Assembly (NCBI GenBank): GCA_034520885.1
Contig: JAXHNE010000009.1
Coordinates: 2,431 to 66,430 of the forward strand
Length of the DNA stretch: 64,000 nt
Direction of reading: 5' to 3'
Origin: Candidatus Saccharimonadota bacterium
Lineage (GTDB): Bacteria; Patescibacteriota; Saccharimonadia; Saccharimonadales; JAXHNE01
In this document: piece by piece, positions 495 through 22,104 of the stretch
Position numbering within the stretch: position 1 is the first letter of the stretch
Layout of the letters: each line of letters begins with the position of its first letter
Made by a program: the position numbers and the translations under genes
The notes under the pieces: generated by a model
The model's database searches: none
Told to the model about the DNA's origin: nothing
The model's input: only the letters and a program-made list of their open reading frames with translations

Positions 495-2471
495 CTAGTT
501 TTGGCCTTGTGTACCGGTGTTCCAGGTATCTTCATCATGCTTGTCGTAGATTACAAGATTTCCGTCTTGTTGGACGACTAGGCGGGAGTAGCCTTTATCT
601 GCAGTGCGGCTTTTCCAAAGAGCATTGCCTTGGCCATCGTAGAGCACTAAATTCCCGTCATGCTGCATGTCTAACCGATAGGACGGCTTACCGTACGTCT
701 TAGTGTGCCATAGCGCATTACCTGAATCAGTAGCATAAAGCACCAAATTGCCATCATCCTGCAGTACAAGTCTATATTTGCCATCAGGTGTTTCGAGTTG
801 CTGGCCGGTATGCAGAAAAGCACGGTCGTATAGAGCTGGGCCTACATAATTAAGCATGTCAGGATTCTCGACTGTCCGGCTATCCCATAAATCGTTACCA
901 GAAGAGTCGTAAACGACCATATTCCCATCTGTTTGCATGACAAAGTAGGCTCCAGGATTACCGTAGGTAGCAGTATGCCAAATGGCGTTTCCATTTTTGT
1001 CATAAAGCACCAAATTGCCATCTGGCTGCATAGTAAGACGTTCGCTATTCCTACCTACAGATGATGTGTACCACTTGGCAAAGTGAGTGCCATAAAGCAC
1101 CAAATTGCCATCATGTTGCAGCACAAGCGTATTATGCAAGTCAGGTGACACAAGATTTTCACCGACCCGTATCTCCTCGTCAGCATTCAGTCTGAAATCC
1201 GTTTCCTGGGCAATGCTAGGGTCAGCTACATTTATTGTGTAGTCAAATTCTACATTTAGCCAGATCTTTCCCTCAATTAGCATTTGGAAATATTCTTGGT
1301 ATGTGCCTTTTTTGCTTGGTGCCGTAAGCTCAAACTCAAGTGTGCCGACATCACCAGGGACAACCGTATCTTCAATCAGCTTTGTGGGACGGTTAGGCTT
1401 GAACCACGTCGCACGAAAGGGACTATAATCGTTGCCATGCCGGCCAATTCGAGTGAACGACCTGTCCCAATTTTTCCAGCCAGTGTTTCTGACCTTGACC
1501 TGTATATATGCTTTGTCACCGGGTGCCAAGCTGATGTCTCTCTGTGTATACTTTTTGGTCATAGCTGAGTCAGTAAAGATACCGACGCTCTCTACAGCGG
1601 TATTGTAGGCAATATTAGTAAGCGTCGACCCAAACCAGTCGTTATACATCCGCCAGAAGTTACGGTTCCCGTAAGCACTACAGTCATCGCCGGTGCCATA
1701 AAGATTGTTCAAGGCAGCAGCATTGGGCTGGTAAGGGGTGTAATTGTAAAGGCCGGCGGTTGCTTGTGAGCGCAGGAATAAGTCGGTGCCGCCGCAACCA
1801 GTGTTAGGGTGATATTGGACATAATTGACAAACCCGACGCGATAGTTCGGCCCGTTAACTTTATCGTAATATTTATAAACCCGGCCTGCGTAGTACACCT
1901 GGTTGAAAAATCCTTCGTACTGGTCGTAACAACCGTTCTGATTACTATCAACGCTGGTAGACAGATTAGAATCTGGGCAACCATAGCCGGTAGCCTTTGT
2001 ATACTGGATGTCCCATGGCCATGTGTCAGTAATCAAGCTTTGTTCCTTTTGCAGCAGTACAAGCAACACTCTGGTGCTAACTCCGCAAGCTTTGGAGACA
2101 TCATGGATTATTTGAGCAGCAGACTGCTTGCTTTTGGAGCTGATAGCTTTACATAATTCTGACTCGGCAGGCTTTGATGGTGTGTTTATCTTGTAATCTT
2201 TGAGGCAAGTATAAGGCGGTCCTGAGTCATTTGACGAACCGCTATAAGCATGGTTAGTATCGCAAACCGGTACCTTACTATTCAAAAATCTCTGGATTTG
2301 TGAAGCGGTCAAATCACCGGCCCTGAAAAACACCGAGTCGTCCATGATTCTTTCAGGATTGAATTGGCTGCCGGATAGGGCGCTTGTTGGTGTAATTTGT
2401 AAGGCAAATAAGCTGGATAGGACGAGGGCTACCAAAAGTGTTATTGATAGGCGTTTACGCAAGCTTTTCAT
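495..2471 (-). CDS. secreted multidomain protein with two tandem bulb-type (MMBL/GNA-like) mannose-binding lectin domains
   Basis: 658-aa ORF with an N-terminal signal peptide (MKSLRKRLSITLLVALVLSSLFALQ). The C-terminal ~230 aa carry six intact QxDxNxVxY motifs (LQHDGNLVLY, MQPDGNLVLY, MQTDGNMVVY, LQDDGNLVLY, MQHDGNLVLY, VQQDGNLVIY). The N-terminal Cys-containing domain (..VLLVLLQKEQSLITD..) and a middle beta-rich domain are of uncertain function. Confidence 0.85.
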   Translation of the reverse strand: MKSLRKRLSITLLVALVLSSLFALQITPTSALSGSQFNPERIMDDSVFFRAGDLTASQIQRFLNSKVPVCDTNHAYSGSSNDSGPPYTCLKDYKINTPSKPAESELCKAISSKSKQSAAQIIHDVSKACGVSTRVLLVLLQKEQSLITDTWPWDIQYTKATGYGCPDSNLSTSVDSNQNGCYDQYEGFFNQVYYAGRVYKYYDKVNGPNYRVGFVNYVQYHPNTGCGGTDLFLRSQATAGLYNYTPYQPNAAALNNLYGTGDDCSAYGNRNFWRMYNDWFGSTLTNIAYNTAVESVGIFTDSAMTKKYTQRDISLAPGDKAYIQVKVRNTGWKNWDRSFTRIGRHGNDYSPFRATWFKPNRPTKLIEDTVVPGDVGTLEFELTAPSKKGTYQEYFQMLIEGKIWLNVEFDYTINVADPSIAQETDFRLNADEEIRVGENLVSPDLHNTLVLQHDGNLVLYGTHFAKWYTSSVGRNSERLTMQPDGNLVLYDKNGNAIWHTATYGNPGAYFVMQTDGNMVVYDSSGNDLWDSRTVENPDMLNYVGPALYDRAFLHTGQQLETPDGKYRLVLQDDGNLVLYATDSGNALWHTKTYGKPSYRLDMQHDGNLVLYDGQGNALWKSRTADKGYSRLVVQQDGNLVIYDKHDEDTWNTGTQGQN

Positions 2472-8215: not shown

Positions 8216-9115
8216 CTAATTGGCGGGTTCTGGTTGCTGCCGTTTAGCTGCGATAGCCAAAGGAACAAGTAATGCCAGAACTGCGAAGTAAGCTAACCTA
8301 TCAATAGTTGCAGCTAAAATAATGTCTTGTGAAGACAAGCCCATTTGGTTCTGTGCTACTAGCAACATTGCTTCTCTGATCCCGATAGCTCCAGGTGTTA
8401 GTGCAACAAGGATTGAAAACTGGGATATACCGGTGTACGTAAGCAGTCCGCCTATCGAGATCTTTGCCCCCACAGCGCTTAGCTCTACACCATATGCTAG
8501 CGTGGAACCGCTTAACTGGAGCAGTGCAATTAAGAACAGACTAATAATAGGTTTTGCTTGAAAAACCACACTAACATTTCTAAGTTTGAGGTATGCGTTT
8601 GCTATGACACGAGGCTTTAATAATCTGAACAAAAATAATGCAAAGGCTAAAGCTCCAACAATTGCTAATATGAACACCAGTACACCAGCGGTACCGCTAA
8701 CTATACCCAAGCCAGATATAATAAGTAGGCCAGCTATTCCAAAAACCATAGCATATTGCATAAAAGTTAGCGCGAAGTATCGCTTGTAAGATATATTGAA
8801 GTACTTTTTCAGGTAAACACCTCTGAAGCCGAGACCACCCTGCAGAAAGCCGAAAAAATTTATCATTGATGAGTAGGCACTAACTCGCACCGCATCTATA
8901 AAAGCTACTTTATTCTTAGTAAAGTTAATGAAAAGAATAAGAAACAGTATATTGGAAAGAAATATCAGTGCCTGCCCAGCCACAACCAGAGATATCTGTG
9001 GTATGGATAAATCTGCAAGTTTTTCAAATTGCTGCTGGTTGTCAAAAAAATAGTAAAAAAAAGCAACCAGAGAGAGAACGAGCAGCAGTATTCGTATTAA
9101 CTTTTTATTTTTCAC
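8216..9115 (-). CDS. flippase-like polytopic membrane protein (LPG-synthase-TM/UPF0104-like)
   Basis: 299 aa with ~8 TM helices. Overlaps the upstream GT2 gene by 11 nt, a common GT2 + flippase-like pairing. Confidence 0.5.
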   Translation of the reverse strand: MKNKKLIRILLLVLSLVAFFYYFFDNQQQFEKLADLSIPQISLVVAGQALIFLSNILFLILFINFTKNKVAFIDAVRVSAYSSMINFFGFLQGGLGFRGVYLKKYFNISYKRYFALTFMQYAMVFGIAGLLIISGLGIVSGTAGVLVFILAIVGALAFALFLFRLLKPRVIANAYLKLRNVSVVFQAKPIISLFLIALLQLSGSTLAYGVELSAVGAKISIGGLLTYTGISQFSILVALTPGAIGIREAMLLVAQNQMGLSSQDIILAATIDRLAYFAVLALLVPLAIAAKRQQPEPAN

Positions 9116-10064
9116 GTTGTGTGTTCTCGAACTGAAGGCGCTTGTTGCGCTCTAAGTTGTTTTCGTTAATGATACGGTTGGTTTTAATCAGATCCGCAAT
9201 GACGCCCAGTACGCAGAACAGTAATCCCGCCGTGAACATGGCGACACCAAGCAGTAGTGATTGAATGTGCTGGCCGGGGTCGGTAGCGCTCACAATCAGG
9301 ATTAAATAGCGTACAAAAGGAATGGCGCTTAAAACCAGCAAAGAAACACCGGGAATGACGAAGACTTTGAGCGGTTCGTGCATAAAGTAACTTTTTAGGA
9401 TGACCCGCATGGATTTATACATGTGCTGGAAGATATTTTTAAACAGGCGTGATTTACGGGTCGGCGGGTTGGTTTTGACCGGTACGGAGGCCAGGGCGAT
9501 ACGGTTCCGCCCGGCATGGATAATGCTTTCCGTGCAGTAGCTGAAGGAGTTTACGATGTTCATTTTGAACGCCGCGTTGCGCGAGTAAGCGCGGAAGCCG
9601 CTGACGGTGTCGGGCACGTTGGTTTTGGCGGCTTTGTTGACTACCCAGCTGCCAAAGCGCTGCATGAGTTTTTTAAACGTGCCGAAATGCTGGATGGCGC
9701 CGGTTTGGCGATCGCCGATGACGATCTCCGCCTCGCCATCAATGACGGGGGTGAGCAATTTAGGGATGTCCGCCTGCGGGTACTGATTGTCGCCATCGGT
9801 GTTGACGATGATGTCCGCGCCGTTGGCTAAGCAGTAGTCCAGGCCGTCCGAAAAGGAGCGGGCCAGGCCACGATTAGTGCGGTGACGTACGAAGTGCTTA
9901 ACCCCGTGTTTTTTGGCGACTTCAACGGTTTTATCGGTGCTGCCGTCGTCGATTATCAGGATTTCTACCGAATCAACGCCCTTGATTTTTTTGGGAATGG
10001 TTTTTAGGACGAGAGGGAGGGTTTCCTCCTCGTTTAGGCACGGAATTTGTACAAACACTTTCAT
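9105..10064 (-). CDS. glycosyltransferase family 2 (polyprenyl-phosphate sugar synthase-like)
   Basis: 319 aa. MKVFVQIPCLNEE..ILIIDDGSTDKT..NTDGDNQY.. (GT-A DxD-type motifs) plus C-terminal TM helices, as in dolichyl/undecaprenyl-phosphate glycosyltransferases. Confidence 0.85.
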   Translation of the reverse strand: MKVFVQIPCLNEEETLPLVLKTIPKKIKGVDSVEILIIDDGSTDKTVEVAKKHGVKHFVRHRTNRGLARSFSDGLDYCLANGADIIVNTDGDNQYPQADIPKLLTPVIDGEAEIVIGDRQTGAIQHFGTFKKLMQRFGSWVVNKAAKTNVPDTVSGFRAYSRNAAFKMNIVNSFSYCTESIIHAGRNRIALASVPVKTNPPTRKSRLFKNIFQHMYKSMRVILKSYFMHEPLKVFVIPGVSLLVLSAIPFVRYLILIVSATDPGQHIQSLLLGVAMFTAGLLFCVLGVIADLIKTNRIINENNLERNKRLQFENTQREK

Positions 10065-10088
10065 AGGCGGGTACCCCTGTGAAAGTCA

Positions 10089-10118
10089 GGAATATGGAAT
10101 ATGGAATATGGAATATGG
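10089..10118. repeat. heptanucleotide tandem array (GGAATAT)4
   Basis: Perfect 4 units at 10089-10116 followed by GG. Lies 25 nt upstream of the GT2 start codon, which is on the minus strand. Confidence 0.95.
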
Positions 10119-10243
10119 GTAAGAACTACCTGCCTAGCTTTGTTTTTTTGTACTGCGCTGCGTCCCGTAGCAGCCTCCGGCTTGCTATCGGGATCCATGT
10201 GCGGAACTCTTGCTTTCATAGGTGGGTACCCCTATGAAAGTCA

Positions 10244-10273
10244 GGAAGATGGAATATGGAATATGGAATATGG
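10244..10273. repeat. heptanucleotide tandem array GGAAGAT(GGAATAT)3
   Basis: Read directly from the sequence. This is the second copy of the duplicated module. Confidence 0.95.
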
Positions 10274-10333
10274 GTAAGAACTACCTGTCTAGCTTTGTTT
10301 TTTTGTGCCGTATTTACGTACATAACTTTATTG

Positions 10334-11680
10334 CTATCTTCCGACTCCGACATAGGTTAAATTATATGCTTCCACGTTTGTTTTATTATAGCAGTTCATG
10401 GCGTCTATGAAGAGATCTCCCTGCATGCGTTTTTTTAATGACGGTAAGTCAATCGTTTTAAGTTCGGGCCAGTCGGTGGTGATGAATACGGCATCGGCGT
10501 TTTCGGTGGCTTTTTCCAGCGAATCACAAATTGCGACTGATTTGCGAAGGTCTTCTTTGGCTTCGCCGTTCGCTCGCGGATCGTACACGCACACCTCCGC
10601 GCCGTCATGATCCAAAATGTTGGCCAGTTTTACGCCTGGAGAGCGCCGCGAGTCGCTGGTTCCCGACTTAAAAGCCAGGCCGAGTACGGCCAATTTTTTG
10701 CCTTGGAGAGTGTCGAGTCGTTCAAGTGCTTTGTTAGCGATGTAGCCGGGCATGGATTCGTTGACGTCGGCCGCGGCGGTCATTATCGGCAAGTCCACGC
10801 CGAATTCCGTCGCGCTGCTGATCAGCCCGCTGACGTCCTTGGGAAAGCACCCGCCACCATAGCCGCGCCCGGCGTTCAAAAACGCCCGGCCAATGCGTGG
10901 ATCGGCGCCGACGGCGTCCATGACTTCCGTGACGTTAGCGCCGGCTTGATCGGCCAGTTTGGCAATGGAATTAGCGAAGGAAATCTTCATCGCCAAAAAA
11001 GCATTGGCGGTAACTTTAATGAGTTCCGCGCTGTTGCGGTTAGTGGCAATGTAGTCCCCGGCTTTTGCCACGAAGGTTATTTTTGCCCGTTTGGCGATCT
11101 CATCCCGCTTGGACTCCAGGGTTTTATACAAGTTTATAACTTCCTCTGCCGCCGGTTTATCCGAACTGCCGGCCACGATGCGGTCAAAACCGAGCGTATC
11201 GGCAATGGCGGTTCCTTCGCGTAAAAATTCCGGGTTGGATACGTAGGATACGTTTTTGCCGGCTCGTTCGAATATCTTTTCCACTGCTTCACCCGTGCCC
11301 ACCGGTACGGTGCTTTTTTGTACGTAAATGGCGCCGTCTTTAATATACTTGGCGGCTTCTTCGGCGGCGGCGTAAACGAAGCTCAAGTTGGAGCTGCCGT
11401 CCGGATTATCCGGCGTGCCGACGCAGGAAAAAATAATATCGCTCCCCGGAATCGCTTGTTCGTAATGGCCAGTGGGGAGCAGTTTTTTGGATTTTATGGC
11501 GTGGGCAATGAGCGGGTCAATGCCGTCCTCGAAAAAGAACGACTTACCGGATTGGATAGTTTTTAAACGACCGGGATTGATTTCTATCAAATGCACGGTG
11601 TGCCCGGCTTCGGCAAAAAGCGTGGCCGTCGTAAGACCGACGTACCCGGCACCAATGACCGAGATGGTTTTAGGCTTCAT
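10334..11680 (-). CDS. ugd: UDP-glucose/GDP-mannose dehydrogenase family protein (probable UDP-glucose 6-dehydrogenase)
   Basis: I trimmed the track ORF to ATG 11680 (MKPKTISVIGAGYVGLTTA = Rossmann motif). Catalytic-Cys motif GGGCFPKDV. ~448 aa. Confidence 0.8.
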   Translation of the reverse strand: MKPKTISVIGAGYVGLTTATLFAEAGHTVHLIEINPGRLKTIQSGKSFFFEDGIDPLIAHAIKSKKLLPTGHYEQAIPGSDIIFSCVGTPDNPDGSSNLSFVYAAAEEAAKYIKDGAIYVQKSTVPVGTGEAVEKIFERAGKNVSYVSNPEFLREGTAIADTLGFDRIVAGSSDKPAAEEVINLYKTLESKRDEIAKRAKITFVAKAGDYIATNRNSAELIKVTANAFLAMKISFANSIAKLADQAGANVTEVMDAVGADPRIGRAFLNAGRGYGGGCFPKDVSGLISSATEFGVDLPIMTAAADVNESMPGYIANKALERLDTLQGKKLAVLGLAFKSGTSDSRRSPGVKLANILDHDGAEVCVYDPRANGEAKEDLRKSVAICDSLEKATENADAVFITTDWPELKTIDLPSLKKRMQGDLFIDAMNCYNKTNVEAYNLTYVGVGR

Positions 11681-16900: not shown

Positions 16901-17908
16901 TTAAAGCGTTTTTTGCCAGCGCCAGGCGTCCGCCAGGGCATCATGAAGCGATTTTTCCGACTTCCAGCCCAGTAATTTTTTGGCCTTTTCGGAGCCGGCG
17001 TAGGTGGCGACGATGTCTCCTTCCCGCGGCGGCCCGATTTTGTAAGGAAGTTTTTTGCCGGTAGCTTGCCGGAAGGCCGTGATGACCTCCAGTACGCTGC
17101 TGCCTTTACCGGTGCCGATATTGCACGTTTCGTAAGTGGAACCTTTTTGGCCGTTGGCCCACTTAAGGGCGGCTACGTGGGCTTTGGCCAGGTCGACCAC
17201 ATGGATGTAGTCGCGTATACAGGTGCCGTCCGGGGTCGGGTAGGTGTCTCCGTGTACCGTAAGTTCCGGCCGTATGCCGGCCGCGGTTTGGGTAATGAAC
17301 GGGATTAGGTTCGCCGGCGTGCCAATCGGCAGCTCCCCGATAAGGGCACTGGGGTGGGCGCCAATGGGATTAAAGTATCGCAGGGCGATGGACGTGAGAC
17401 GTTTGCTGGCTTTGGTGGTGTCTTGAAGGATGGTTTCATCCATTTGTTTGGTGGCGCCGTATGGCGAGGTGGCGGGTTTGGTTGGCGCCTCTTCGGTGAC
17501 GGGCAGATCGTCCGGTTCGCCGTAAACCGTGCAGGAGGAAGAAAACACGAAGTTTTTTACGGAGGCTTCTTCCACGGCTTTAAGCAGGGTGATAAGCCCC
17601 GCGACGTTATTTTGGTAATAGTCCAGAGGTTTTTGCACTGATTCGCCGACCGCTTTATGCGCGGCGAAGTGAATAACTCCTTCTACCGCGTGATCTTTCA
17701 GGAGCTTTCTTAAAAACGACTCATCTTGGTAGTCGTTTTCATAGGAGGTAATATCTGAACCGGTAATTTCATTTAAGCGGTCAATGACCTGCCGATCGGA
17801 GTTTGAAAAGTTATCTACGATTATTGGCCGGTAGCCGGCGTTGACCAGTTCCACGACCGTATGCGAACCAATGAACCCGGCGCCTCCGGTAACCAAGATG
17901 TTCTTCAT
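16901..17908 (-). CDS. galE: UDP-glucose 4-epimerase
   Basis: 335 aa. VTGGAGFIGSH NAD motif and YGATK catalytic motif (SPYGATKQM). Confidence 0.9.
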   Translation of the reverse strand: MKNILVTGGAGFIGSHTVVELVNAGYRPIIVDNFSNSDRQVIDRLNEITGSDITSYENDYQDESFLRKLLKDHAVEGVIHFAAHKAVGESVQKPLDYYQNNVAGLITLLKAVEEASVKNFVFSSSCTVYGEPDDLPVTEEAPTKPATSPYGATKQMDETILQDTTKASKRLTSIALRYFNPIGAHPSALIGELPIGTPANLIPFITQTAAGIRPELTVHGDTYPTPDGTCIRDYIHVVDLAKAHVAALKWANGQKGSTYETCNIGTGKGSSVLEVITAFRQATGKKLPYKIGPPREGDIVATYAGSEKAKKLLGWKSEKSLHDALADAWRWQKTL

Positions 17909-19092
17909 TTTTTGCCCTTTGAACCAATTCGTTTTAGGTGGGCTTTTATGGCTTGGCGGAAATGTTTTTGGTCAAATTGCCGGGCGGTTTTGGATATGGC
18001 GCCCGGGTCAAAGGAGTGGTCGGGAAATTGTCGCAATACCCGTACGAGCGAGTCGACGGTTTGTTCCTTGAAAAACGTACCGGTTTTGCCCTCGATCACG
18101 TAATCCAGGGCGCCGCCGGCTTGGTAGGCGATTACCGGGGTGCCGGAGGCCATGGCTTCTACCGGCGCGATCCCGAAATCTTCCAGGCTGGCGAAAATAA
18201 AGGCTTTGGCGGACGCCAGAGATTCTTCAATTTCTTGGTTGGTGGCGTTGTCGTTAAAGGTGATCGTATCGCCGGCAATGCGTTTTAAGTTGCCCAGTTC
18301 CGGGCCGTAGCCAATGACGGTGAGGGGGAGTTTTAACTGATTACAGGCTTGGATGATGAGGTCGGTGCGTTTGTTGGGGACGAGACGCCCCACAGTCACG
18401 AAGCCACGCTTCTTGGAAGATGGAATATGGAAGGTGGAATTTGAGAAGCGGGAGGTGTCTACCGGGGGGTGGATGACGGTTGAGTCGCGACCGTAGTATT
18501 TTTTGATGTCACTTTGAATGTGCGTGGAGTTGGCGATAAAATAATCAACCTTTTGCGCCGCTTGGTAGTCACGTTCGCGCAATGGTTTTACCAGTAACTT
18601 GAGCCCGATCCGGACGAGCCATTTCGGCCGAAAGCCGGGATTTTTAAGGTAGTTGTCGTAGTGCCGCCAGTAGAAGTGGACCGGGGAATGGCAATAACAT
18701 ACATGCAACGGGCGTTGCATGTTGGAAGATGGAAGTTGGAAGTTGGAAGATGGCGAAACGAATTTGGCTTCTCCGTTACCGCTGGAGCTGATTATCAGAT
18801 CGTAGTCACTTAAATCCAGCTTTTTGAACCAACGTTGCCGGAGTAATGGTAAAAACTTCCGAAGCCGGGAGAACGGCCACTTTTGCAAGTATCCGGTTAC
18901 TACTTTGCCATCTAATTTATCGCGCCACTCATCACTGCAGTAAGAGGTGTAAATCGGCGCTTCCGGAAACATTTTATGGAGTTCCAAAACAACCTGTTCA
19001 GCACCGCCTCCCAAAAGCCAATCGTGGGCTATCGCAACCTTCAGGTTGCGCGTGGAAGGTGGAAGGTGGAAGGTGGAAGGTGGTTGTTTCAT
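17905..19092 (-). CDS. glycosyltransferase family 4 carrying three in-frame heptamer-array insertions
   Basis: 395 aa. Core ..KVAIAHDWLLGGGAEQV.., ..LHVCYCHSP.. and ..EDFGIAPVEAMASGTPVIA... Repeat-encoded segments are MKQPPSTFHLPPSTRN (N-terminus), SPSSNFQLPSSNMQ and NSTFHIPSSKK. The start overlaps the stop of the upstream gene (ATGA). Confidence 0.85.
   Translation of the reverse strand: MKQPPSTFHLPPSTRNLKVAIAHDWLLGGGAEQVVLELHKMFPEAPIYTSYCSDEWRDKLDGKVVTGYLQKWPFSRLRKFLPLLRQRWFKKLDLSDYDLIISSSGNGEAKFVSPSSNFQLPSSNMQRPLHVCYCHSPVHFYWRHYDNYLKNPGFRPKWLVRIGLKLLVKPLRERDYQAAQKVDYFIANSTHIQSDIKKYYGRDSTVIHPPVDTSRFSNSTFHIPSSKKRGFVTVGRLVPNKRTDLIIQACNQLKLPLTVIGYGPELGNLKRIAGDTITFNDNATNQEIEESLASAKAFIFASLEDFGIAPVEAMASGTPVIAYQAGGALDYVIEGKTGTFFKEQTVDSLVRVLRQFPDHSFDPGAISKTARQFDQKHFRQAIKAHLKRIGSKGKK
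18400..18448. repeat. hairpin (GAAGC-CAC-GCTTC) + degenerate heptamer array TGGAAGA TGGAATA TGGAAGG TGGAATT TGAGAAG
   Basis: Read directly from the sequence. Lies inside the GT4 CDS, in frame. Confidence 0.8.
18703..18753. repeat. hairpin (ATGCAACG-GG-CGTTGCAT) + heptamer array TGGAAGA TGGAAGT TGGAAGT TGGAAGA TGG
   Basis: Read directly from the sequence. Lies inside the GT4 CDS, in frame. Confidence 0.9.
19033..19083. repeat. hairpin (CGCAACCT-TC-AGGTTGCG) + perfect heptamer array (TGGAAGG)4 TGG
   Basis: Read directly from the sequence. The array occupies codons 4-13 of the GT4 gene, starting 9 nt after its ATG. Confidence 0.95.
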
Positions 19093-19448
19093 CGAAGTGG
19101 TCTCATGAATGCGTTTAGTAATTTTTGAACCGAAACACTTTCTTTAAGCAACTCACTCAATTCATCATCGTTGACGTAGTCAAGCCTATTAGCTAAATAC
19201 AAAAAGTTCTTTGTCTCAAGTGCTGAGCCGTACGCTATGACGAAAAAGTGTAGCTTGTCTTTCTTTGTTTGCCTTCCGAAGCCCTCCGAAATATTCGCGG
19301 AGATTGATGAAACTGAACGCCTGATCTGTGAAGTTAACCCGAAACGCTCCTCAGAAGGAAATTTTTTCGTTACTCTATAGACGCTTACGGCCCAATCCTG
19401 CGCTTTTCGCCAAACTTCAAGATCTTCGAATGATTCAATTCGTGCCAT
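19089..19448 (-). CDS. four-helix-bundle protein (23S rRNA intervening-sequence protein / Avd family)
   Basis: 119 aa. MARIESFEDLEVWRKAQDWAV...QIRRSVSSISANISEGFGR...ALETKNFLYLA matches the family known as PF05635/TIGR02436. Confidence 0.85.
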   Translation of the reverse strand: MARIESFEDLEVWRKAQDWAVSVYRVTKKFPSEERFGLTSQIRRSVSSISANISEGFGRQTKKDKLHFFVIAYGSALETKNFLYLANRLDYVNDDELSELLKESVSVQKLLNAFMRPLR

Positions 19449-19491
19449 ATTCCACCTTCCATATTCTACCCTCCGTGATGCTTCGCATCAC
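19447..19491. repeat. inverted-orientation heptamer array + hairpin (GTGATGC-TTC-GCATCAC)
   Basis: On the minus strand this reads GTGATGC GAA GCATCAC GGAGGGT AGAATAT GGAAGGT GGAATAT G. It contains the RBS-like GGAGG/AAGGTGG and the ATG of the four-helix-bundle gene. The outer hairpin arm contains the TGA stop of the upstream sugar transferase. Confidence 0.85.
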
Positions 19492-20912
19492 TTGGCTCCG
19501 GTTCCGAGGAGCACCACCCGGATGGTGCGCAGGAGGATGCTGATATCCAGTACGAAGCTCCAGTTTTGTACGTAGTAGACGTCCAGGCGACGGCGTTCTT
19601 CGAAGCTGATGTCCTCCCGACCGGAAATTTGCGCCAAACCGGTAATGCCGGCTTTTACGCTTAAAATGGCGTGTTTTCGTTTGTAAGTGTTAAGCTCCGC
19701 CGGTATGAGGGTGCGCGGCCCGACGAGGCTGAGATCGCCCAGGATAACGTTAAATAACTGGGGGAGTTCGTCCAGGCTGGTGCGGCGCAAGAAACGCCCG
19801 ACTTTACTGATGCGCGGGTCTTTGGCGAGCACGTAACCGTTGTTTTTGTAAGTTTCGTACAGCTTGGGTTTGCCGAGTTTTTTAAAGGCGGCTTTATCGG
19901 AGAGGCCGCTAATGTCCGCGCGGTGCGTTCGGAATTTAAATACTTTGAATTCACGATTAAAGCGCGTCAGGCGAACTTGGCGGAAGAACACCGGTCCGCG
20001 CGGGTCGCTGATTTTTAGAACGACGGCGATCACGGCAATTACCGGTGAAAGCACGATAAGAGCTAACGAAGTAAAGAAAAGATCGAACAGGCGTTTGGCG
20101 ATGCGCCCCCAGCCGATGAGCTTGGTTTGGTGCACGGCGATCATGGGCAGGCCGGCGAATAAATCCACCTCGATATTGCCCACGAACAAGTTGCTGTTGC
20201 CGGGCATGAACCGATAGGACACGTGGTTTTCTTGGGCGAAGCGCACGATCTCGTTGTTTTTTAGGTCGTCCTTATACAGTTCGGTATGAATAATTCCGTG
20301 CGGGTGGGAGGGCAGTTTTTTGATGGCATCCTCGAAACTGGCGAAGTATTTAAACCGCGGGCTTTTTTTGCCAACGATACCCATGACGCGAATACCGCTG
20401 GTTTTGGTATCCGAAATGATGCGGGCCAGGTCGATGCTGGCGTCCGTGTTGCCGATGATCAGTACGTCACTAATGCCGACCTTAAAGCGGAATAATAGAC
20501 GGCGCAGTATTCGCGTCGCGGTGCGAAACAGCAGCAAAAGGCCAAAACTTAAACCGAAGCCGTAGACGGGCACCAAACGGGCGGGAAACAACTCTCCGCC
20601 GATTACGAAATCGTAGCCGATGACCACCAAAATGCCAATGAACGCCCCGGTAATGAGCCGGCCGAGTTCCACGAAGCGTTTTTCGTAAATGTCTTTTCGG
20701 TATAAGCCGATAGCGGCGTGCACCAGCAGCCAAAACGGCAGTACGGCCAGGAAGGTATACAGGAATTCCAAGGCGGTTATTTGCTCGATAAGCGGTAGTT
20801 CGTCCTGGACTTTTACGCGGATGGTGTAAGCCACGCTGAAGGCGGCGGTGAGGGCGAGAGCGTCGCCGATAACTAAAATCAGTGAGTAGAAAACCGAGGC
20901 ATTATTGCGCAT
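19488..20912 (-). CDS. polyprenyl-phosphate hexose-1-phosphate transferase (WbaP/WcaJ-type priming sugar transferase)
   Basis: 474 aa. N-terminal TM helices plus the C-terminal bacterial sugar transferase domain (..RIAKRLFDLFFTSLALIVLSPV..DELPQLFNVILGDLSLVGPR..). RBS GAGGAGG lies upstream. Confidence 0.9.
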   Translation of the reverse strand: MRNNASVFYSLILVIGDALALTAAFSVAYTIRVKVQDELPLIEQITALEFLYTFLAVLPFWLLVHAAIGLYRKDIYEKRFVELGRLITGAFIGILVVIGYDFVIGGELFPARLVPVYGFGLSFGLLLLFRTATRILRRLLFRFKVGISDVLIIGNTDASIDLARIISDTKTSGIRVMGIVGKKSPRFKYFASFEDAIKKLPSHPHGIIHTELYKDDLKNNEIVRFAQENHVSYRFMPGNSNLFVGNIEVDLFAGLPMIAVHQTKLIGWGRIAKRLFDLFFTSLALIVLSPVIAVIAVVLKISDPRGPVFFRQVRLTRFNREFKVFKFRTHRADISGLSDKAAFKKLGKPKLYETYKNNGYVLAKDPRISKVGRFLRRTSLDELPQLFNVILGDLSLVGPRTLIPAELNTYKRKHAILSVKAGITGLAQISGREDISFEERRRLDVYYVQNWSFVLDISILLRTIRVVLLGTGAK

Positions 20913-21199: not shown

Positions 21200-21652
21200 A
21201 TGAAACTCAAGATCAAAAAGAAACAAAAACGGGGAATCAAGCGCTTTGGCGGGTACATGGTCGGCGGTGGCGCCCAGTTTTGGAGCGGCTACGCGGCTTT
21301 CGCCCTGTTCGACGCGGTGTTCGGCATTAATTTTTGGTGGGCCAAATCCCTGGCATACTTTATCGGCGTGTCCGTGAATTACGGGCTGGAGCGGTTTTGG
21401 GTGTTCAAGGTCAAAAACATTACCCGCAAACAAATTGAAACCAGCGCCGGTAAGTTTTACACGCTCATGTTCGTTAACTTCTTGCTGGACCTAGGTATCG
21501 TCGGCGGATTGCGGCAACTGGGGCTTACCCCGTACTTGGGCCAGTTCGTGAGTAGCGGCTTCTTTACGGTATGGAACTGGGTTTTGTTTAATTTGTGGGT
21601 GTTTTCCAAAAAACGCGTGCCTCGTAAAAAGAAAAAGCGACGTAAAAAATGA
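21200..21652 (+). CDS. GtrA-family membrane protein with Lys/Arg-rich tail
   Basis: 150 aa with 4 TM helices (GGAQFWSGYAAFALF.., ..NYGLERFWVF..) typical of GtrA-like proteins. C-terminus is VPRKKKKRRKK. Confidence 0.7.
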   Translation: MKLKIKKKQKRGIKRFGGYMVGGGAQFWSGYAAFALFDAVFGINFWWAKSLAYFIGVSVNYGLERFWVFKVKNITRKQIETSAGKFYTLMFVNFLLDLGIVGGLRQLGLTPYLGQFVSSGFFTVWNWVLFNLWVFSKKRVPRKKKKRRKK

Positions 21653-22104
21653 CGAGTGACGACAAACAAACCATCCGACCGACCAAAAAACAGCGTGAAA
21701 CGCTTACGTATATTGAAGAATTTATCAACGAACACGGTTACAGCCCCAGCTACCGCGAAATCATGCGAGCCTGCAACTACACCTCCGTGGCCACGGTGGC
21801 GCTGCACGTTAATAACCTGATAAAACGCGGGCATTTGATAAAACGTGATCATCGGGCTCGTTCGCTGGAAGTCGTGAGCCCCGGGGAGGCGCATAAAAAA
21901 CTTCCCACCAATGAGGTAAGCGAAGCCCAGGAAAAGTGGTTGGTCGAAAAAATCGACCATGTATTTTCCGAGGCCGAACATTCCGCCAATCCGGACGATT
22001 ACTTGGATAAACTGCACGTGTTAGTCGGTGCGCTGCACGTGCTCGGGCTGGAAGGCGCCGCGCAATCCTTCGTCGCGCGGCTTACGGATTTAAAATCTAA
22101 GTAG
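21649..22104 (+). CDS. LexA-N-terminal-type winged-helix DNA-binding protein (no S24 peptidase domain)
   Basis: 151 aa. ..RETLTYIEEFINEHGYSPSYREIMRACNYTSVATVALHVNNLIKRGHLIKR.. matches the LexA DNA-binding domain. The C-terminal half is helical and unrelated to S24. ATGA overlap with gtrA. Confidence 0.65.
   Translation: MTSDDKQTIRPTKKQRETLTYIEEFINEHGYSPSYREIMRACNYTSVATVALHVNNLIKRGHLIKRDHRARSLEVVSPGEAHKKLPTNEVSEAQEKWLVEKIDHVFSEAEHSANPDDYLDKLHVLVGALHVLGLEGAAQSFVARLTDLKSK

Follow-up and report, generated by a model that had tools for sequence, protein, structure and literature searches.

A heptamer tract at the start of a Saccharibacteria glycosyltransferase gene as the probable arm of an IVP cassette

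Why does a glycosyltransferase gene begin with a perfect tandem repeat whose unit, at seven nucleotides, is not a multiple of three? The gene in question lies in a 64,000-nucleotide stretch of Candidatus Saccharimonadota DNA (assembly GCA_034520885.1, contig JAXHNE010000009.1, positions 2,431 to 66,430), termed here the window, and encodes a GT4-type enzyme (hereafter GT4). A preliminary description of this DNA had read the repeat as a contingency locus, in which gain or loss of units switches the gene off and on. The evidence assembled here points to a different origin. The tract is very probably the right-hand terminal inverted repeat of a cassette of approximately 440 nt that carries an IVP/S23p gene, resembles the intervening sequences (IVSs) of rRNA genes and is inserted between the genes for GT4 and a Bac_transf sugar transferase. 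As judged from sequence, its protein belongs to PF05635, the family that includes the Avd protein of diversity-generating retroelements (DGRs), and its anatomy appears to be that of the open reading frame (ORF)-bearing IVSs of 23S rRNA, placed in a protein-coding operon.

The tract and the cassette around it

On the plus strand, positions 19052-19083 hold a perfect GTGGAAG array of 4.6 units (Tandem Repeats Finder score 64, 100% matches). On the minus strand, the 5ʹ end of the GT4 gene accordingly runs ATG AAA CAA (CCACCTT)4 CC ACG CGC AAC CTG AAG GTT GCG ATA GCC CAC GAT TGG, which is translated as MKQPPSTFHLPPSTRNLKVAIAHDW. The repeat search and the reading frame thus bear out the perfect tract in codons 4-13 that had been described earlier, as the translation and the Pfam matches (Glycos_transf_1, 5e-25; Glyco_transf_4, 1e-12) bear out a glycosyltransferase that reaches its KVAIAHDW motif only after the tract. 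An identical protein is on record on a 203-kb contig, annotated 'MAG: Candidatus Saccharibacteria bacterium', which marks the source as a CPR organism. Homologues typically start with M-x(3-7)-[LP][KR]VAIVHDW or plain MKVAIVHDW, whereas the window protein consists of MKQ, 10 further residues and TRNL-KVAIAHDW; the array is therefore an exact 30-nt in-frame addition.

The tract is far in excess of chance. The window contains four period-7 runs, compared with none for each of the periods 5, 6, 8 and 9, and six arrays of the form (GGAANNN)nGG with at least two units, or (CCANNTT)n on the minus strand, compared with 0.21 expected from shuffles. Five of these (10089, 10244, 18415, 18724 and 19054) read CCANNTT on the minus strand and the sixth (19445) has the opposite orientation. 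Exactly four units followed by CC are present in four of the six, and all six fall within one glycan cluster.

The array at 19445 is the partner of the GT4 tract, and the two bracket a small gene. The features of this region are as follows:

17905-19092, minus strand: GT4 glycosyltransferase gene (395 aa; Pfam), the downstream host gene of the cassette
19033-19050, minus strand: junction hairpin CGCAACC-TGAA-GGTTGCG, seen in both the minimum free energy (MFE) and the centroid fold
19054-19083, minus strand: right arm (CCACCTT)4CC, read as GT4 residues 4-13 (PPSTFHLPPS), an inverted repeat with 19445-19474
19089-19092, minus strand: ATGA overlap of the IVP stop TGA (19091-19089) and the GT4 start ATG (19092-19090)
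19089-19448, minus strand: IVP/S23p gene (119 aa), encoding a four-helix-bundle protein (PF05635, Avd-like; Pfam, PDB)
19445-19474, minus strand: left arm GGAGGGTAGAATATGGAAGGTGGAATATGG, holding a Shine-Dalgarno-like AAGGTGG and the IVP ATG (19448-19446)
19475-19491, minus strand: left junction hairpin GTGATGC-GAA-GCATCAC, over the sugar transferase stop codon (19488-19490)
19488-20912, minus strand: Bac_transf priming sugar transferase gene (474 aa), the upstream host gene of the cassette

A repeat search returned the arms as a 30-nt inverted repeat, 80% complementary with the copies 361 nt apart, in which 24 Watson-Crick pairs and one GU pair form over the 30 positions. The left arm is likewise built of heptamers (AGAATAT GGAAGGT GGAATAT G), with the IVP start codon inside them. 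As RNA, the two arms give a predicted duplex of -44.8 kcal/mol (z -4.5), and in the 481-nt minus-strand RNA of 19025-19505 both the MFE and the centroid structure hold a long-range arm stem flanked by two small hairpins (z -3.5). The enclosed ORF matches the Pfam family 23S_rRNA_IVP (PF05635) with an E value of 2.1e-38 and, in the PDB, 2gsc (XCC0516; E 3.5e-17) as well as 2rld. The 2gsc entry comprises five chains, and this relative has been called a homopentamer (PMC4990558). An identical IVP protein in a Saccharibacteria metagenome-assembled genome carries the annotation 'four helix bundle protein'. Six-frame hidden Markov model (HMM) searches found no second IVP-like ORF in the window.

The whole cassette (about 19033-19491) lies between two protein-coding genes rather than in a 23S or 16S rRNA helix; no Rfam family matches it even at E <= 1, and no rRNA was found in the window. 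The right arm begins 9 nt past the ATGA overlap, a putative translational-coupling junction that the cassette appears to have brought with it. At the right-hand end, the 3ʹ arm of the junction hairpin consists of the conserved host codons K-V-A and its 5ʹ arm lies within the inserted DNA. The left junction hairpin includes the GCGAAGC mini-hairpin motif, and a similar hairpin is present at three relatives' loci (L005, L010 and L009; labels of this kind denote fetched loci). GCGAAGC forms a very stable mini-hairpin in DNA and is found repeatedly at the apex of array-adjoining junction hairpins (window 19477-19489; L005, L009, L003, L006 and L002). Paralogy of the two 474-aa genes that adjoin arrays was considered and dismissed, as the two proteins are unrelated.

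In the sequence itself, the left arm covers the ribosome-binding region and ATG of IVP, the IVP stop TGA overlaps the ATG that now starts GT4, and the right arm comes directly after and is read as codons 4-13, with the short hairpin linking it to the conserved KVAIAHDW stretch. The following mechanism is proposed for this layout. Within the polycistronic transcript, the arms may pair into a 27-30-bp stem enclosing the IVP ORF. By analogy with rRNA IVSs, for which this has been demonstrated, such a stem could serve as a substrate for RNase III, and it would also hide the IVP start. Unprocessed transcripts would then be the source of GT4, through translational coupling. Since both filled and empty sites exist, the cassette was presumably gained as one unit, by some mechanism of mobility.

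Cassettes, hairpins and solo arrays in relatives and beyond

GT4 loci were retrieved from Saccharibacteria species representatives, 80 in total. Ten of them have an IVP gene immediately upstream of GT4, and each of these ten has a long array-encoded, heptamer-type extension of the GT4 N-terminus. Similar extensions are also found in a few loci without IVP, e.g., L061. In most of the other loci, GT4 follows straight after the Bac_transf gene, which corresponds to the empty site. Together with the window this makes 11 cassettes, in every one of which inverted arrays bracket the IVP ORF. The unit varies by lineage yet covaries between the arms (GGAAGGT/CCACCTT, GGTAGTT/CCAACTA, ATACTTG/CAAGTAT, ATATTTG/CAAATAT), and in L071 the arms are built on a 14-mer. 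Inter-arm RNA duplexes are much stronger than those of shuffled sequences in 7 of the 11 (z -3.8 to -7.3).

Exact-protein look-ups of five IVP homologues added five further lineages, for a total of 16 distinct Saccharibacteria cassettes. Complementary arms reach at least 18 nt in 13 of the 16, and because this complementarity recurs, the identity of the tract as an inverted-repeat arm is not a feature of one genome. The IVP ORF is intact in all 16, and the downstream ORF in each starts between -34 and +3 nt from the IVP stop and is in frame through the arm; nine have an ATGA-type overlap. IVP is co-oriented with its neighbor genes in all Saccharibacteria cassettes examined. Most lineages have arms of approximately four units, mostly imperfect in the relatives. 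Larger counts occur as well (7 in L002 compared with 4 in L005; 7 in P0003), representing evolutionary shifts by three units. As the right arm is translated, only 1, 4, 7 and so forth units keep GT4 in frame, which accounts both for the intact frames of all relatives and for arms that differ by multiples of three units.

Three of the five added lineages show the same Bac_transf-IVP-GT4 synteny, and two place the cassette at a GtrA-IVP-LexA-like junction, where the downstream protein begins with MKQ followed by an arm of four units (MKQPTSNFDLPTS..). At this junction GtrA has a C-terminal extension translated from the left arm. The GtrA/LexA-like (LexA_DNA_bind) junction is filled by an IVP cassette in L083-85 and L106-113. 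The window contains this second junction in its empty form and hence harbors both a filled and an empty site for this element family:

21649-21652, plus strand: ATGA overlap of the GtrA gene (21200-21652) and the LexA-like gene (21649-22104), with no IVP between them

IVP proteins remain 50-77% identical across lineages while the unit sequences differ widely. The divergence of IVP is similar to that of the glycosyltransferases, which fits long co-residence, as far as sequence comparison can tell, rather than recent movement.

Hairpins adjoin arrays far more often than expected. A short hairpin lies within a few nucleotides 3ʹ of each array, and a perfect stem of at least 6 bp follows 54% of 26 arrays, compared with 2.5% of random positions (p 2.5e-10). 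The 3ʹ arm of these hairpins is conserved host coding sequence (KVA, LHV, GFV); the 5ʹ arm falls in the added sequence and changes in step with its host partner. Some (L002/L005, L096) are perfect palindromes. At the GT4 N-terminus, a hairpin of at least 6 bp is present in 6 of 10 loci with IVP compared with 1 of 60 without, indicating that the hairpin comes with the cassette. A pre-existing hairpin as the target of insertion was ruled out, as hairpins are essentially absent from the loci that lack IVP.

Arrays also occur without an IVP gene. Within the window, two such solo arrays interrupt the GT4 gene and two more lie in the leader of a GT2 gene (9105-10064):

18724-18753, minus strand: solo array at site 2 in GT4, CCATCTT CCAACTT CCAACTT CCATCTT CC
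18701-18722, minus strand: hairpin after the site-2 array, ACATGCAAC-GCCC-GTTGCATGT, whose 3ʹ arm is the host codons L-H-V
18415-18437, minus strand: solo array at site 3 in GT4, CCACCTT CCATATT CCATCTT CC
18400-18412, minus strand: hairpin at site 3, GAAGC-GTG-GCTTC
10089-10118, minus strand: solo array (CCATATT)4CC upstream of the GT2 gene
10057-10085, minus strand: hairpin after the 10089 array, containing the GT2 ATG
10244-10273, minus strand: second copy of the GT2-leader array, with its hairpin at 10213-10241

The site-2 array amounts to 10 additional amino acids relative to insert-free GT4 homologues. At site 3, the array and hairpin together share 77% complementarity with the cassette's left arm and left hairpin across 44 nt. 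Solo arrays at these two GT4 loop sites, with no IVP ORF, are found in the window and in L002, L003, L008, L009, L014, L030, L037, L043 and L062; their units differ by genome, and their orientation is reversed in L014 and L030. They are 40 times denser in GT4 than in 1.15 Mb of flanking DNA and are associated with an upstream IVP gene (5/11 compared with 5/62; Fisher p 0.005).

The GT2 leader (10058-10334, minus strand) is a duplicated segment with copies 155 bp apart that are 96% identical over 94 aligned nucleotides. Each copy has an A-rich stretch followed by (CCATATT)4 and a 10-bp hairpin, and the GT2 ATG at 10064 sits in the 3ʹ arm of the second hairpin. Two small ORFs of 35 and 52 codons (ATG at 10323 and 10219) translate across the arrays; ATGA overlaps join the two in a chain that leads to the GT2 ATG. 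Six-frame HMM searches found no remnant of IVP coding sequence near these arrays.

Several observations concern the arrays more generally. Logan contigs of SRR26473340 that are identical to the window start inside arrays (position 1 of L001, ~18748; position 1 of L082, ~10108), and many IVP homologues returned by the protein search sit on very short contigs. Arrays therefore seem to break short-read assemblies. Metagenomic arrays of at least three CCACCTT units (L139-L258 among them) reach up to 15 perfect copies, and about half lie in open frames of at least 150 codons, where most are no more than a few tens of codons away from one end of the frame. This placement suggests a general preference for gene boundaries. 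No GT4 homologue was found beside these metagenome arrays. Elsewhere in the window, a gene at 495-2471 (minus strand) encodes a 658-aa protein with B_lectin and Ig-like domains. Its approximately six diverged copies of a 33-nt motif, spaced ~90-96 nt apart (174 once), represent internal repeat-domain structure.

The association of IVP genes with arrays is not restricted to Saccharibacteria. IVP genes were located on plasmids by tblastn and their flanking DNA was retrieved. Flanking arrays accompany the IVP genes of Nostocales, Pseudanabaena, Stanieria, Picosynechococcus, Leptolyngbya, Riemerella and Gemmatirosa; they have a period of ~7 (8 in a few), are mostly inverted (z -3 to -9) and are 25 times denser near IVP ORFs than in the remaining 71 kb of fetched DNA. 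As in Saccharibacteria, IVP is co-oriented with its neighbors in nearly all plasmid cassettes. Two Nostoc plasmids carry different IVP cassettes (L133 3986-4351; L138 3989-4366) at adjacent junctions of one syntenic operon. Both operons share the WP_104899637.1 gene, with a TCAGGAG-arm cassette before it in one and a GGGAAAA-arm cassette after it in the other, which on sequence grounds is direct evidence for independent insertion. Judged in the same way, the cassette design appears to be general across phyla, being recognizable in cyanobacteria, Bacteroidota and Gemmatimonadota.

Several of the plasmid IVP genes sit between cas genes, a location noted earlier for this family (PMC3936711). IVP genes with flanking arrays in CRISPR-Cas operons (cas6/cas4, cmr2/cmr3) were seen in Anabaena 90 (L125), Picosynechococcus (L128) and Pseudanabaena (L130), and the Pseudanabaena cas region is rich in AGCTAAA arrays of both orientations. 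With the exception of the Coxiella IVS, a literature search found no paper tying IVP genes to heptamer arrays.

Weighing the cassette against other explanations

A number of results weigh against the interpretation of the tract as the arm of an IVS-like cassette, or against parts of the mechanism proposed for it. Pairing of the stem and cleavage by RNase III are argued from analogy, and cleavage within the stem would remove the GT4 start codon, which is awkward if GT4 is needed. Mismatches between the arms of the 16 cassettes comprise 14 G-U and 25 A-C pairs; with no G-U excess, these counts give no specific sign that the sense RNA is under selection, and the RNA-stem model is unaided by them. 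Furthermore, inter-arm duplexes are weak in L005, L016 and L023, and the arrays flanking the Pseudanabaena and Gemmatirosa IVP genes are direct, not inverted. Solo arrays at three places in the window lack an IVP gene and are unaccounted for by the cassette. The same is seen from the side of the arrays: when IVP was sought within 900 nt of 127 metagenome arrays of at least three CCACCTT units, a detectable gene was near 4 and most were solo. Loci with IVP are scattered in a poorly resolved glycosyltransferase tree, such that a single ancient gain followed by losses is inseparable from repeated gains. Finally, no transposase, reverse transcriptase or recombinase was found among the 28 window proteins scanned against Pfam, a subset of all ORFs, and a repeat search of the window returned no long repeat resembling the template repeat/variable repeat (TR/VR) pair of a DGR.

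The strongest competitor, which is possible but rather less than likely, is an element that moves at the DNA level. Its arms would be recognized as DNA, either by a recombinase encoded elsewhere or by IVP itself, and the RNA stem would be incidental; the solo array-plus-hairpin modules would be abortive or decayed insertions. The occurrence of filled and empty sites at two junctions fits this explanation, as do the different cassettes at adjacent junctions in the two Nostoc plasmids, the absence of a G-U over A-C bias and the presence of arrays in both orientations in GT4 genes. The 40-fold enrichment of solo arrays in GT4 and their tie to an upstream IVP gene point the same way. Additionally, the junction hairpins are inverted copies of adjacent host codons that arrive with the cassette and could be the footprint of insertion chemistry. 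However, no target-site duplication is visible at the ends of the arms and the scanned window proteins include no transposase or recombinase. No catalytic activity is known for IVP, a small four-helix bundle (PMC4990558), and the similar divergence of IVP and glycosyltransferase favors long co-residence over recent movement.

A domesticated regulator is an unlikely alternative. Here an IVP pentamer would bind arrays, as RNA or DNA, and control the translation or stability of the genes that bear them, namely, IVP itself, GT4 at its three sites and GT2. The intact IVP ORFs of all 16 cassettes are consistent with such a role, as is the position of arrays over start regions, with six of them in one glycan cluster. 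Arrays have 4-5 units, which recalls the five chains of 2gsc and the homopentamer (PMC4990558), and the Avd relatives of IVP act with nucleic acid in DGRs (PMC10053308). On the other hand, binding of IVP to arrays is putative, and unit sequences vary widely between lineages in which the protein is much better conserved. Moreover, most metagenome (CCACCTT)n arrays have no IVP nearby, and the S23p protein of Coxiella appears not to be expressed (PMC4990558).

The contingency locus proposed in the preliminary description would hold that the perfect tract is kept because slipped-strand mispairing toggles GT4 and so varies a surface glycan, and its reasoning about the frame proved correct. When GT4 was rebuilt in silico with 0-9 units, the ORF was intact at 1, 4 or 7 units only, in agreement with the stated dependence on four units modulo 3. 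The predicted immediate stop after loss of one unit was reproduced by the 3-unit version, which terminates as MKQPPSTFHLPRAT (..PRAT*), and gain of one unit leads, as had been stated, through GGG AGG CGG TGC to a TGA (..GRRC*). Translation from a start 3ʹ of the tract, an alternative that had been raised, was looked for and no credible start was found: CTG at codon 17 lacks a Shine-Dalgarno sequence, and the first canonical start after it, TTG at codon 27, lies beyond the conserved HDW motif. Because the tract occupies the sole usable frame and its unit is not a multiple of three, a slipped-strand change would turn GT4 off. The location of GT4 in a polysaccharide cluster and the 3-unit difference between L002 and L005 are compatible with switching, and in Coxiella, strains differ by one heptamer in the homologous element, in an untranslated arm (PMC4990558). 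In the window genome, the breaks of the SRR26473340 Logan contigs in the 10089 and 18724 arrays are compatible with either length heterogeneity or repeated k-mers.

What found no support was the dedicated switch, which is now quite improbable. The tract is one arm of an inverted repeat enclosing the IVP gene, and this element accounts both for its existence and for its size. The same kind of arm lies downstream of IVP in all 16 cassettes, including those that precede a LexA-like, non-glycan gene. With 16 of 16 in frame there are no OFF alleles, and arms of approximately four mostly imperfect units are the rule. Classical contingency tracts have more units than the 4.6 seen here. A comparison of repeat number across relatives, which had been proposed as a check, was carried out on homologous cassettes with five sets of contigs that share an identical IVP protein but derive from different samples. 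In these 41 contigs unit number is invariant and point substitutions are the sole differences, even though 300 nt of the adjacent gene show as many as 27 SNPs (up to 9%). For the exact window tract, scanning metagenomes for its arm/hairpin junction returned 0 hits, and exact-protein look-ups with IVP and Bac_transf gave nothing on record; look-ups with the epimerase and GT2 returned only SRR26473340 Logan contigs, identical to the window and broken inside arrays. With no strain variant of that tract found, rare switching in the window population may be conceived of. Nevertheless, slippage would inactivate GT4 and looks like a liability of the element rather than a selected switch.

The two remaining alternatives can be dealt with briefly. 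That PPSTFHLPPS serves GT4 as a functional linker or signal at its N-terminus, with the DNA periodicity secondary, is very improbable: the peptide is translated and similar peptides occur at three loop or terminal sites in homologues, but these differ wholly by lineage (PSSTFHL, TTNYQLP, SNIKYQI, reverse-strand GRWKVEG) whereas the periodicity persists, many homologues that look active have none, and the same peptide type precedes an unrelated LexA-like protein. Least probable of all is an invertible switch in which a site-specific recombinase flips the segment between the arms, an idea to which the 30-bp inverted repeats 361 bp apart beside a surface-glycan gene lend themselves but which was rejected in view of the near-universal co-orientation of IVP with its neighbors and the lack of an invertase among the 28 window proteins scanned against Pfam.

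Significance and comparison with known systems

If the tract is the arm of an IVP cassette, as appears probable, then the design known from IVS-type IVP elements in rRNA is found here inside a protein-coding operon. One arm of the inverted repeat is translated, and the start codon of a host gene comes from the element. To our knowledge, neither the mobility of IVSs nor the function of the S23p/IVP protein is yet understood, and the over-represented heptamer arrays of bacteria are equally unexplained; the locus connects IVP proteins and heptamer arrays with operon expression in a concrete and testable way. That association is one-way, as IVP genes have arrays and most arrays are solo. More speculatively, and with considerable doubt, IVP/S23p genes and heptamer arrays might form one widespread class of tiny selfish or regulatory cassettes, present in at least five phyla at operon junctions and in rRNA helices, with solo arrays as decayed or abortive copies and junction palindromes as an insertion footprint. 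Cassettes of such a class may provide the gene that follows them with a start codon and an N-terminal peptide, and their mechanism of insertion, as yet undescribed, is possibly RNA- or retro-mediated, by analogy with the related Avd. For annotators of these genomes, the cassette accounts for unusual N-terminal extensions and internal low-complexity inserts, and for places where assemblies break. It also cautions that a repeat at the 5ʹ end of a glycan gene need not be a phase switch even if its unit is not a multiple of three.

Like the contingency loci of Haemophilus, Neisseria and Campylobacter lipooligosaccharide and capsule genes, the window tract is a repeat of non-multiple-of-3 unit that sets the frame in the 5ʹ coding region of a glycosyltransferase. 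Unlike them, it has only 4.6 units and forms part of an inverted repeat around another gene; arm length is conserved across lineages, relatives are imperfect, and neither OFF alleles nor strain-level variation were seen. Miniature inverted-repeat transposable elements resemble the cassette in their small size, terminal inverted repeats, and filled and empty sites. However, the cassette has a conserved non-transposase ORF, no target-site duplication was seen and its arms are internally periodic.

The DGR target has a VR, an initiation of mutagenic homing (IMH) sequence and a hairpin in succession. The geometry of an array followed by a hairpin with a GAA, GAAA or similar loop recalls this arrangement. 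Furthermore, IVP belongs to the Avd-like four-helix-bundle family (PMC10053308), and P0136 gives a weak bAvd hit. Unlike a DGR, the window has no TR/VR pair and no adenine-specific variation, and this candidate was rejected given that no reverse transcriptase is among the 28 scanned proteins and only one IVP-like ORF is present.

Heptamer arrays have been described, in the parts of the reports consulted, as GGGAATC in Xanthomonas and GGGGA(T/C)T in Nostoc (PMC4692102) and as TAACTGA in Beggiatoaceae, cyanobacteria and Bacteroidetes (PMC4679880). In those passages, the arrays resemble the window arrays, as do the short tandemly repeated repetitive (STRR) sequences of cyanobacteria, in their 7-nt, lineage-specific units and their frequent position near starts or gene junctions. 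They are also often paired in convergent (inverted) orientation, with function unknown, and the passages searched make no link between heptamer arrays and IVP genes (PMC4692102, PMC4679880). The arrays that flank cyanobacterial IVP genes in the present survey are of this STRR/published-heptamer type. Unlike the published arrays, those of the window bracket an IVP ORF and are translated.

The closest parallel is provided by the S23p/IVP ORF-bearing IVSs of 23S rRNA genes, a kind of element familiar since the early 1990s. The IVS of the Coxiella burnetii 23S rRNA is 444 nt long and contains an S23p (PF05635) ORF; its inverted-repeat borders form a 28-bp stem that is cut by RNase III, and a Shine-Dalgarno-like sequence and 3-4 tandem heptamers (GACAGAT) lie just before the S23p ATG (PMC4990558). 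The window cassette differs from the rRNA IVSs, which lie in helix 25 or 45, in its location at a gene junction of a protein-coding operon, in the translation of its right arm as the N-terminus of the next gene, whose ATG the IVP stop overlaps, and in its extra junction hairpins, built partly from host codons. Excision by RNase III has been shown for the rRNA IVSs and would apply to the window cassette by analogy. In other respects, the agreement is close. Like the IVSs of C. burnetii and Leptospira, the cassette carries a PF05635 ORF in the loop, and its terminal inverted repeats are predicted to form a stem of ~28-30 bp around that ORF. At ~440 nt, it is near the length of the Coxiella IVS, and it likewise has tandem heptamers and a Shine-Dalgarno-like sequence just before the ORF start. 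This shared size and anatomy argue that the heptamer tract of GT4 is the arm of an IVS-type IVP element carried in an mRNA.

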